From a virus (lineage: Duplodnaviria > Heunggongvirae > Uroviricota > Caudoviricetes): DNA of 4,264 bases. A model generated the notes under the pieces. It was given only the letters and a program-made list of their open reading frames with translations. It ran no database searches and was not told where the DNA came from. A program made the translations under genes and the position numbers. The first letter of the stretch is position 1, and each line of letters starts with the position of its first letter. This document shows, piece after piece, positions 282 to 2,091 of the stretch. The stretch lies in the IMG/VR virus record IMGVR_UViG_2541047119_000017. One strand, 5' to 3'.

Positions 282-581
282 TTACTCGAGAGGAAATTGG
301 TTATGAATACAATCAAGTTTTCTTGCCCAGAATGTGGTGGCTAAGTCTTTGACACATCCTTTAAGCCGCAGGGCTCTGACAGTTTCGCGGGAGCCATCTG
401 CAAAAATTGTGGTCACCTTGTAACTGAAGATGAGTCCTCGCAGTTCGATGACGAAATCGTTGACAATATCTTCGGTGCACTCACCAGAGACTTTCTGAAG
501 TAAAGGCGCATACCGCTTAGTTACCGCTCTGATAACTCTTACCTGTCCGGCAATGGCGCTGATATCAATATAAAGCGCCAT
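282..581 (-). CDS. Hypothetical protein (99 aa), leftward early-operon cargo of unknown function
   Basis: Only uninterrupted ORF over 282..581 in any frame; no long plus-strand ORF competes. It lies downstream of and on the same strand as the repressor gene, where Qin carries the ydfABC-dicF-dicB cassette. Weak points: no convincing Shine-Dalgarno upstream of the ATG (AAAGAAACAGCG), and I do not recognise the protein. Confidence 0.4.
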   Translation of the reverse strand: MALYIDISAIAGQVRVIRAVTKRYAPLLQKVSGECTEDIVNDFVIELRGLIFSYKVTTIFADGSRETVRALRLKGCVKDLATTFWARKLDCIHNQFPLE

Positions 582-716
582 CGCTGTTTCTTTGCTGATC
601 CCTGGACGCCTTCCATTCTGATGTTTGACTCGCCCACTGAGAAATCCTCTGCTTCCCCTTAACGCCGGGTAGCGGAACTGTTTGCTGAGAACACCGTGCG
701 GTGTCTTGATGAGTAG

Positions 717-746
717 AATTTAGAATAGCCTAAGAGTTATGGTCAA
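717..746 (-). promoter_or_regulatory. Putative pL-like leftward promoter with overlapping operator (OL-like)
   Basis: Minus strand: -35 TTGACC (plus 741..746), 18-bp spacer, -10 TAAATT (plus 717..722). The spacer contains TTAG-aatagc-CTAA (720..733), the same TTAG-N6-CTAA motif seen three times between the repressor and cro-like genes. A second, imperfect copy gTAG-aaaaac-CTAA lies at 756..769. Confidence 0.3.
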
Positions 747-844: not shown

Positions 845-1252
845 TTATTTATTTGCGCTTCTTTTGCGAGCTTTGAGTAGTTCTTCAAAAAGTTTGTTGA
901 AATTCTCAACTCGAGCACGCATCTCTGACAACAGAGCCTTTTGCTCTGACTCAGGCAGTGCGTCGAACAGTTGAAGCAACTCTTTTTGATCTTCTGTCAG
1001 ATTGACTGGCTGATTATCTGGGATCGGTTCGCCTGGTTGCTTATCTTCATCTCCAAAAAGAAGCCAAGTCGGCGAGCACTGAAGCGCCTGGCTCAGTGCG
1101 AATAATCTCTTCCCCGCTGGCTGTGTTTCATCTCTTTCCCATTGAGAAATTGTTACGTGAGCCACTTTGACCAGCTTACCTAATGCGGCCTGAGACAGTT
1201 TTAATTTTTTTCGCCTGTATAAGAGGCGAGCACCGAAGGTTTCGTTTTTCAT
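845..1252 (-). CDS. dicA: DicA-like HTH (XRE/cI-type) prophage repressor, 135 aa
   Basis: ORF 845..1252 (minus). N-terminal HTH signature (LSQAALGKLVKVAHVTISQWERDETQPAGKRLFALSQALQCSPTWLLFGDE) and C-terminal segment (LPESEQ...EMRARVENFNKLFEELLKARKR) closely match my recollection of E. coli Qin DicA (135 aa). Divergent from a cro-like gene across an operator region. No Shine-Dalgarno upstream of the ATG; see the finding on a leaderless transcript. Confidence 0.9.
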   Translation of the reverse strand: MKNETFGARLLYRRKKLKLSQAALGKLVKVAHVTISQWERDETQPAGKRLFALSQALQCSPTWLLFGDEDKQPGEPIPDNQPVNLTEDQKELLQLFDALPESEQKALLSEMRARVENFNKLFEELLKARKRSANK

Positions 1253-1328
1253 ATTAGGTAATTCTAATTTTTCTTGACTTAGGTTTCTCTACGATCTAGT
1301 TTCCTTAGGAAAATCTAAGGGTTTCGAT
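1253..1328. promoter_or_regulatory. Divergent operator/promoter region of the immunity switch (three TTAG-N6-CTAA operator-like sites)
   Basis: O1 aTTAG-gtaatt-CTAAt (1253..1268), O2 cTTAG-gtttct-CTAc (1278..1292, one mismatch), O3 CCTTAG-gaaaat-CTAAGG (1303..1320), centre-to-centre spacing 25 to 26 bp. Plus-strand -35 TTGACT at 1274..1279 with a weak -10 TAGTTT at 1297..1302 for the cro-like gene. Minus-strand -10 TAGAAT (plus 1261..1266) inside O1, immediately upstream of the repressor ATG. Confidence 0.6.
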
Positions 1329-1556
1329 ATGTTGAAAATTGATGCTATAGCGTTTTTTGGCAGCAAAACAAAGCTTGCCAATGTCGCAGGAGTTAGGCTG
1401 GCAAGCGTTGCTGCATGGGGGGAACTGGTTCCTGAAGGTCGCGCGATGCGCCTGCAAGAGGCATCCGGCGGGGAACTTCAGTACGACCCCAAAGTTTATG
1501 ACGAATATCGTAAGGCAAAGCGGGCGGGGCGGTTGAACAATGAAAATCACCACTGA
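1329..1556 (+). CDS. dicC: DicC/Cro-like small DNA-binding regulator, 75 aa
   Basis: ORF 1329..1556 with AAGGG Shine-Dalgarno (1317..1321), 7-nt spacer. Divergent from the DicA-like repressor across the operator region, which is the cro position. Its size and position match DicC of Qin and YdaS-type Cro analogues. The family call is from context and recollection, not an alignment. Confidence 0.8.
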   Translation: MLKIDAIAFFGSKTKLANVAGVRLASVAAWGELVPEGRAMRLQEASGGELQYDPKVYDEYRKAKRAGRLNNENHH

Positions 1557-2091
1557 ACAGGTTTGTGAGGCTCTGGATACCTGGGTATGCCGACCAGGAA
1601 TGACACAGGAGCAGGCGACGATATTAATCACGGAAGCATTCTGGGCTCTGAAAGAACGCCCGAACATCGATGTTCAACGCGTCACGTTTAATGATGGCGA
1701 GGTTGATCAACGGGCGCTGGGCGTTAACCGGGTGAAGATATTCGAACGCTGGAAAGCTATCGACACCAGAGATAAGCGTGACAAATTCACGGCGCTGATT
1801 CCGGCAATTATGGAGGCTATCCGGATCAGCGATTTCAGATTGTATTGTGAAATTACTGACGGAAAAAGCATTACGTACATGATCGCCGGGTTAAACAAAG
1901 AATATGGCGATGTGGTGGAGTCCGGGCTGCTTTTTGCGGATCCAGTTGTTGTGGAACGTGAGACTGACGAGCTTATAGAAAAAGCTATTGCTTTCAAGCA
2001 CGCGTATCGTCAGCAATACCAATATTACTTTGCAGATAAACAAATGTCTGCCAGGGGGGCGTATGAGTATCGATGCACTACGATGGGCTAA
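1540..2091 (+). CDS. ydaT: YdaT-like protein (proposed functional analogue of CII in Rac/CP-933P-type prophages), 183 aa
   Basis: ORF 1540..2091, ATG overlapping the end of the cro-like gene by 17 nt, with a G-rich ribosome-binding region (GGGGCGG, 1523..1533). It occupies the cII position. The N-terminal MKI..E motif and the internal KFTALIPAIMEAI segment resemble what I recall of E. coli YdaT (MKI..., KIQKLIPAILAIL). Tentative family assignment. Confidence 0.65.
   Translation: MKITTEQVCEALDTWVCRPGMTQEQATILITEAFWALKERPNIDVQRVTFNDGEVDQRALGVNRVKIFERWKAIDTRDKRDKFTALIPAIMEAIRISDFRLYCEITDGKSITYMIAGLNKEYGDVVESGLLFADPVVVERETDELIEKAIAFKHAYRQQYQYYFADKQMSARGAYEYRCTTMG

Follow-up and report, generated by a model that had tools for sequence, protein, structure and literature searches.

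Lysis-lysogeny switches of the lambda-like DicA/DicC kind, in which a repressor gene and a cro-like gene diverge from a shared control region, have already been studied in Escherichia coli K-12 and O157:H7, and the region described here is an ordinary member of this family. It lies in a 4,264-nucleotide stretch of viral DNA, here called the window, by which the whole stretch that was analysed is meant.

In the Qin prophage of K-12 the operator Oc is a 20 bp site, TTGTTAGTCATAACTAACAA, with a TTAG-N6-CTAA core and experimental support, and a single change in it, from CTAA to CTCA, abolished DicA binding in vivo (PMC3441716). According to the same study, whose names Oa, Om and Oc are followed here, two further sites, Om and Oa, had been named by sequence alone, and neither was bound alone by DicA in vivo. 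The dicC start, mapped by 5'RACE, falls inside Oc, and the activity of the dicA promoter requires DicA, an effect that the authors credit to DicA at Oc (PMC3441716). The DicC motif recovered by ChIP-seq is palindromic, TT(A/C/T)G...C(G/A/T)AA, and the strongest peaks flank dicA on each side (PMC11430063). An independent classification places the K-12 dicA mRNA among the leaderless ones, with a leader of 3 nt (PMC4681348, Table S3). A Reg-Seq study found no active start in its mutagenised window and is therefore uninformative on the K-12 dicA promoter (PMC7567609).

The PaaR2/YdaS/YdaT switch of the CP-933P prophage has the same host, E. coli O157:H7, and the same layout of repressor, intergenic region, cro-like gene and ydaT. 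Its intergenic region is 97 bp long, OL and PL were identified there too, 5'RACE and N-terminal sequencing showed that its repressor mRNA has no leader, and its YdaT has a CII-like role. Unlike the locus described here, CP-933P has a repressor of another family, which is co-transcribed with a toxin-antitoxin pair, and its control region carries GTTTAGTAA repeats and four inverted repeats.

The immC region of P22 (c2, cro and OR1-3) has in common with the present locus a C2-like repressor N-terminus, a protein of the P22_Cro family, and an operator shape of two contacted 5-bp halves around four central bases that are not contacted, within an 18-bp site (PMC4267663). Unlike in P22, the repressor found here is 135 aa long, without an S24 domain, and the half-site sequence is different. 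Phage lambda shares repressor and cro genes that diverge, an OR of three sites spaced by about 25 bp, OL sites at the leftward promoter, a leaderless repressor mRNA and, as far as the analogy with Qin goes, a repressor promoter that would depend on the repressor. The present locus differs from lambda in that its operators have no sequence homology to those of lambda, its repressor lacks an autocleavage domain, and the place of CII is taken by a YdaT-family protein.

The locus and its proteins

Positions 1-1980 of the window match the genome of E. coli O157:H7 EDL933 (NZ_CP008957.1) with one mismatch, at position 1163, and the matching region is the ompW-adjacent prophage (window coordinates are those of the EDL933 record minus 1848220). 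The immunity module (845-1556) was detected, at a coverage of at least 80%, in 751 of 5426 complete E. coli genomes (~14%), and was 100% identical in one O157:H7 strain. The preliminary description had taken the prophage to be uncharacterised; however, this exact locus was the subject of a 2019 study of the O157:H7 dicA and dicC genes (PMC6915034), the primers of which match the window exactly, one 50-nt homology arm corresponding to positions 1279-1328. In that study, DicC overexpression strongly decreased dicA mRNA and increased dicB, DicA overexpression lowered dicB, and a dicA deletion was unobtainable in O157:H7 (PMC6915034). Three genes of the module and its rightward operon are considered here:

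845..1252, minus strand: repressor gene, 135 aa, DicA-like (EDL933_RS09600)
1329..1556, plus strand: cro-like gene, 75 aa, DicC homologue, 83% identical to K-12 DicC
1540..2091, plus strand: YdaT-family gene, identified by Pfam YdaT_toxin and by RefSeq annotation

The repressor is 63% identical to K-12 DicA over 131 aa (E=6e-62), and both repressors have 135 aa. Its Pfam content is HTH_3 only, and a PDB search matched its first ~70 residues to the N-terminal domain of the P22 C2 repressor (E=1e-21). Pfam gave no match to a Peptidase_S24 domain in the 135-aa repressor, and therefore RecA-mediated cleavage is not expected. The module works in a lambdoid fashion, yet its repressor is not a full-length repressor of the CI or C2 type. 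Qin DicA is relieved by the antirepressor Rem (PMC10448788), and by analogy induction of the present prophage would be expected to require an antirepressor as well; a rem homologue is listed within the same EDL933 prophage region.

The cro-like protein belongs to the Pfam family P22_Cro (PF14549), above the curated cut-off. The YdaT-family gene is second in the rightward operon, at the cII position, and further downstream Pfam identified a gene with a DnaT domain, related to replication, and a lambda-P-like gene. The downstream ydaT and replication genes are thus still present, unlike in Qin. With the YdaT-family protein as query, PDB gave no sequence match, so the YdaT operator of CP-933P is not simply transferable to this prophage. 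In the leftward direction are a small hypothetical gene and ydfC, and in an annotated near-identical relative ydfC is followed by dicB and by exonuclease, excisionase and integrase genes beside ompW. The gene order and the leftward dicB-type operon are shared with Qin.

Operators and promoters between the divergent genes

A gap of 76 bp (1253-1328), compared with 83 bp in Qin, separates the repressor ATG (1252..1250, minus strand) from the cro-like ATG (1329, plus strand). Reading of the sequence and a pattern search showed that it is filled with TTAG-N6-CTAA sites, at start-to-start distances of 25 and 26 bp. Transcription starts were taken from Supplementary Table S5 of a Cappable-seq study of EDL933 covering eight conditions (PMC10469882), in which the sequence of the region is identical. 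The features of the intergenic region are the following:

1254-1267: operator Oa, TTAGGTAATTCTAA, a perfect TTAG-N6-CTAA site overlapping the -10 and the +1 of the repressor promoter
1279-1292: operator Om, TTAGGTTTCTCTAC, with one mismatch, its right half being CTAC (7/8 core bases)
1305-1318: operator Oc, TTAGGAAAATCTAA, a perfect site covering the +1 of the cro-side promoter
1254, minus strand: start of the repressor mRNA (EDL933 gTSS 1849474(-)), detected by Cappable-seq in 8/8 conditions
1266..1261, minus strand: -10 of the repressor (PRM-like) promoter, TAGAAT, at exactly -12..-7 of start 1254
1289..1284, minus strand: -35 of the repressor promoter, GAGAAA, weak (3/6 matches), with a 17-bp spacer, inside Om
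1274-1279, plus strand: -35 of the cro-side (PR-like, dicCp) promoter, TTGACT, invariant in 13/13 clade representatives
1297-1302, plus strand: -10 of the cro-side promoter, TAGTTT, at -12..-7 of start 1309, aligned with K-12 TATCTT
1309 and 1310, plus strand: starts of the cro-like/ydaT/replication operon, detected by Cappable-seq in 3/8 conditions

These data support an operator array with divergent promoters and a repressor mRNA that is in effect leaderless. An OR-type operator array between DicA-like and P22-Cro-like genes, as first proposed, agrees with the homology, the Pfam assignments and the PDB match. The three TTAG/CTAA sites with a 6-bp spacer at intervals of 25-26 bp were correctly located, and the outer two are perfect, but the right half of the middle one is CTAC. 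The Oc palindrome extends to CCTTAG/CTAAGG (1303-1320), and Om falls between the -35 and the -10 of the cro-side promoter and at the same time overlies the repressor promoter's -35.

Across the five sites of the window, which include two at the leftward promoter (see below), the fifth position of the half-site is a purine in 10 of 10 cases, and TTAGR-N4-YCTAA is therefore a tighter description that fits all of them, with an A+T-rich centre. The resulting 5-4-5 shape fits the uncontacted centre of the P22 repressor site. Five matches with at most one mismatch were found in the window, against 1.03 expected, a count reached in one of 200 shuffles. Markov-1 simulations placed three sites within 70 bp in 0.03% of cases, and among 50,000 shuffled versions of the intergenic region not one contained three sites or two perfect ones.

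The repressor mRNA begins with 5'-AUAUG, and its leader of 2 nt is too short for a Shine-Dalgarno sequence. The repressor ATG had been described as having no Shine-Dalgarno and a minus-strand TAGAAT 8 nt upstream, which reading of the sequence confirmed, and the suggestion that this hexamer gives rise to a leaderless mRNA is met by the start mapped 2 nt before the AUG in all eight conditions. Because Cappable-seq enriches triphosphate ends, it is unlikely that the end at 1254 arose by processing. The TAG of TAGAAT is supplied by an Oa half-site. The -10 is embedded in Oa in Qin as well, where the K-12 hexamer TAGCAT likewise occupies -12..-7 of the mapped dicA start and the near-leaderless repressor mRNA has a leader of 3 nt, compared with 2 nt here. 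The -35 was rightly called poor, since GAGAAA agrees with the consensus at three of six positions. Without a ribosome-binding site, the repressor mRNA would have to use the leaderless translation route, like lambda cI mRNA transcribed from PRM.

On the opposite strand, start 1309 corresponds to EDL933 1849529(+), from the exponential M9 condition, and start 1310 to 1849530(+), from the exponential salt and stationary salt conditions. The cro-like leader is therefore 19-20 nt long, and a Shine-Dalgarno sequence, AAGGG, is found at 1317-1321. TTGACT and TAGTTT are separated by a 17-bp spacer, an arrangement consistent with the 5'RACE of K-12 dicC. The mapped starts at 1254(-) and 1309/1310(+) establish the divergent promoters that had been predicted, and both OR starts were already available in the published EDL933 Cappable-seq data. 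Each mapped start, including the leftward one at 710, has a -10-like hexamer at exactly -12..-7.

Relative to the cro-side start 1309 and the repressor start 1254, respectively, the operator centres lie at -48.5 and -6.5 (Oa), -23.5 and -31.5 (Om), and +2.5 and -57.5 (Oc). A distance of 55-56 bp between the two OR starts, and of 5 bp between their -35 hexamers on the two strands, makes joint occupancy of both promoters improbable; we infer that OR is probably not occupied by two polymerases simultaneously. The divergent starts of lambda are about 82 bp apart, and with the shorter distance found here the repressor -10 comes to lie within the operator nearest to the repressor gene, and the -35 under the middle site. 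A consensus promoter and terminator scan of positions 700-1600 flagged neither OR promoter, only the PL-like promoter. Each of the OR promoters has one weak hexamer, which explains this outcome, and their assignment rests on the published mapped starts.

The leftward operators and the relatives of the locus

The set of sites in the preliminary description was incomplete, since the OL/PL half of the switch (710-769) had been missed. Its features are:

720-733: OL1, TTAGAATAGCCTAA, a perfect site that overlaps the spacer and the -10 of the PL-like (dicBp-type) promoter
756-769: OL2, GTAGAAAAACCTAA, with one mismatch, upstream of the PL-like -35
746..710, minus strand: PL-like promoter, with -35 TTGACC (746..741), an 18-bp spacer and -10 TAAATT (722..717)
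710, minus strand: PL-like start (EDL933 gTSS 1848930(-)), detected in 8/8 conditions

The OL sites are placed just past the 3' end of the repressor gene, and two sites occurred by chance in positions 690-800 in 0.3% of shuffles. The PL-like promoter was also picked up by the consensus promoter scan. In Qin, two sites likewise flank the leftward promoter, and in most relatives with TTAG-half-site operators the site at the OL1 position is kept, with a partner site 35-36 bp away, so that the pair flanks the -35 of the leftward promoter. The detection of the PL-like start in all eight conditions indicates either that repression through OL is at best partial in the laboratory or that leaky transcription was detected. 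The conserved PL leader (585-712, minus strand), when folded, scored z=-0.2, showing no sign of a structured RNA, and an Rfam scan of the whole window gave no match at E<=1.

Searches with the repressor returned 99 related loci with 49 distinct intergenic regions, and 13 clade representatives were compared, from Escherichia, Citrobacter, Symbiopectobacterium and Rahnella, with repressor identities ranging from 100% to 51%. The repressor start codon, the half-sites of Oa and Oc, and TTGACT were invariant or nearly so in the 13 representatives, as were the two Oa spacer bases, A and T, that make up the rest of the -10, and the G of the Om left half. The spacer of Oc varies freely while its half-sites persist. 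At Om, the TTAG of the left half abuts the -35 (as TTGACTTAG) in 10 of the 13 clades, and the right half differs among clades (CTAC, TTAA, CGCG or TGAA). Conservation of the half-sites, which had been put forward as a check on the array, is therefore found for Oa and Oc down to ~50% repressor identity, but at Om for the left half only.

In all clades a few bases at most separate the repressor ATG from the first operator; a -10-like hexamer precedes the ATG by 6-9 nt, and a Shine-Dalgarno sequence is missing. As judged from these sequences, a near-leaderless repressor mRNA is a trait of the family. More distant repressors with a recognition helix of the form ...SISLWES (instead of ...ISQWER) have half-sites of the CTCA/TGAG type at the same three positions. 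Repressors with the SLWE helix thus have changed half-sites, indicating that operator and protein co-vary.

The intergenic region of Qin aligns with that of the window site for site, in the order ATG-adjacent Oa, TTGACT, degenerate Om, -10 and Oc, with the TTAG-N6-CTAA core at the same three positions and the same TTGACT -35. Om matches the core at 6/8 bases in Qin and at 7/8 here. The fifth base of the half-site is a pyrimidine in Qin (TTAGY) and a purine here (TTAGR), and the recognition helices are SHVSVSQWER and AHVTISQWER, respectively. Given these differences in half-site and helix, cross-immunity with Qin is not assured.

How the switch may operate

Very probably the region serves as OR in a lambdoid immunity switch of the DicA/DicC type, belonging to an ompW-adjacent prophage. 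Dimers of the 135-aa repressor and of the 75-aa Cro-like protein would recognise TTAGR-N4-YCTAA. Repressor on Oc, perhaps together with repressor on Om, would shut off the cro-like, ydaT and replication genes, while the Cro-like protein, or an excess of repressor, would shut off repressor synthesis by binding to Oa. A block of the repressor promoter by Oa occupancy fits the lowering of dicA by DicC overexpression, an effect observed, like the lowering of dicB by DicA, on identical sequence. OL1 and OL2 bracket the leftward promoter leading into the ydfC...dicB operon.

As in Qin, the weak repressor promoter would need the repressor for its activity, either through a contact made from Oc, at about -57.5, or through removal of the competing strong rightward promoter. 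DicA binding at Oc and DicA-dependent transcription of dicA were shown in the Qin homologue only and are extended to this locus by analogy. How each protein occupies the individual sites here, whether cooperatively, and by what mechanism activation proceeds are matters that we infer.

There is a sizeable, though smaller, chance that OR functions with two operators, Oa and Oc being genuine and Om a half-site or weak relic whose TTAG is fused to the -35 as in the junction given above; Om would then be unoccupied, or filled through cooperativity only. This reading is favoured by the variation of the Om right half between clades, by the near-invariance of only the left half, which overlaps the invariant -35, and by the Om of Qin, TATG-N6-TTAA, which was unbound by DicA in vivo (PMC3441716). 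Against it, Om keeps seven of the eight core bases within the window's own clade while its spacer changes, its half-site variant GTAGA is also present in OL2, and its spacing to both neighbours is fixed at 25-26 bp. Weak middle sites that are filled cooperatively are normal in lambdoid switches.

Positive autoregulation from the middle operator, proposed in the preliminary description, would require the repressor at Om to touch RNA polymerase at the weak -35 and to activate the repressor promoter in the way that OR2 activates PRM in lambda. The weakness of GAGAAA and the resemblance of the three-site layout to lambda OR speak for it. However, the lambda OR2 centre is near -42, whereas Om, with its centre at -31.5 from start 1254, lies across the -35 hexamer (1284-1289) and not beside it. 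The activity of the Qin dicA promoter does need DicA, but there DicA bound Oc alone and its authors credited the activation to Oc (PMC3441716). Om is also the least conserved of the OR sites, with its left half alone conserved, and activation of the lambda OR2 type is accordingly improbable.

That the sites are chance A+T-rich palindromes or mere promoter elements without a protein-binding role is hardly credible, even though the intergenic region is A+T-rich and promoter hexamers share bases with the sites (the TAG of TAGAAT, the final T of TTGACT and the TAA of TAAATT), because chance is rejected by the intergenic shuffles and the rarity of three-site clusters, the half-sites are kept while the spacer varies, even the halves outside any hexamer, and the motif recurs at OL, matches the Qin Oc and the DicC ChIP motif, and co-varies with the recognition helix.

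The DicA/DicC-type switch with operators at OR and OL is already documented, for Qin or for this locus, in its architecture, its operator core, its leaderless repressor mRNA and its antagonism between DicA and DicC, and the map presented here raises no new question. Its base resolution, with five sites, three mapped starts and an mRNA with a 2-nt leader, serves annotation and the design of mutants. The module controls dicB and related cell-division inhibitors, together with the early genes of a prophage present in about one in seven complete E. coli genomes.

Tentatively, two further properties may hold jointly for the family: a logic more compact than that of lambda, with mutually exclusive OR promoters, and separate immunity classes defined by the half-site. 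In the first, the apparent positive autoregulation may come about through Oc, by removal of the rightward competitor or by a contact at about -57, and not in the manner of OR2. In the second, TTAGR as opposed to the TTAGY of Qin, and the change from CTAA to CTCA that accompanies the SLWE helix, may define separate classes, which, if true, would let several DicA-type prophages share one genome without cross-talk.

Leftward transcript and its surroundings

Published Cappable-seq data from EDL933 (PMC10469882) contained the start of the leftward, PL-like transcript (position 710) in all 8 conditions, while the rightward start, at 1309/1310 upstream of the cro-like gene, was found in 3 of 8. Repression thus seems looser at the leftward promoter than at the rightward one, despite the two operator-like sites that flank the former. 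The leader of the PL-like transcript (640-712, read leftward from the start at 710) was near-identical among relatives whose repressors share just 53-66% identity, and it includes a small hairpin:

691-704, leftward transcript, hairpin in the PL-like leader

The leader had no Rfam match and its predicted fold was not significant (z = -0.2).

Further to the left, a putative 66-aa zinc-ribbon protein of the CxxC...CxxC type can be read on the plus strand at 303-503 (MNTIKFSCPECGG*VFDTSFKPQGSDSFAGAICKNCGHLV...), in the same region as an annotated frame of opposite orientation:

342-344, plus strand, in-frame TAA stop interrupting the putative zinc-ribbon frame (sequence reading)
282-581, minus strand, 99-aa ORF on the opposite strand to that frame (RefSeq annotation)

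The codon equivalent to 342-344 is GAA (Glu) in two related viral contigs, for example L063, and TAA in 13. No Pfam match was found for the 99-aa ORF.

Cro-like and ydaT-family genes

The cro-like gene is preceded by the Shine-Dalgarno sequence AAGGGT (1317-1322) in the window and in EDL933, and by AAGGAG in most close relatives; from this comparison, AAGGGT may represent a weakened translation signal on the cro side in this lineage. Downstream, a candidate YdaT site was located:

1533-1550, TTGAAC-N6-AATCAC, across the stop of the cro-like gene and the start of ydaT

It agrees at 9 of 12 bases with TTGATT-N6-AATCAA, the YdaT site of the O157:H7 prophage CP-933P, which occupies the equivalent place in that prophage. 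No sequence match to solved structures was detectable for the YdaT-family protein of the window, and its specificity may therefore differ from that of CP-933P YdaT.

Operator half-sites and repressor recognition helices

In related loci (L009-L013, from Citrobacter braakii, Buttiauxella, Superficieibacter and MAG contigs), the equivalent three positions of the intergenic region upstream of the repressor are occupied by CTCA/TGAG-type half-sites, and the repressor helix reads ...SISLWES as opposed to ...ISQWER. The CTAA to CTCA change, which matches these half-sites, abolished binding of Qin DicA in the laboratory (PMC3441716), and the joint change of half-site and helix looks like a natural specificity switch.

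Half-sites and helix also differ between the window and the K-12 prophage Qin. The base following TTAG is a purine (TTAGR) in all ten window half-sites. In Qin, the sites with TTAG/CTAA halves (Oa, Oc and the operators on the dicBp side) have a pyrimidine there (TTAGY). This difference at the fifth position is accompanied by one in the recognition helix, which is AHVTISQWER in the window and SHVSVSQWER in Qin. Judged from these paired sequence differences, the window prophage and Qin may belong to distinct immunity classes.
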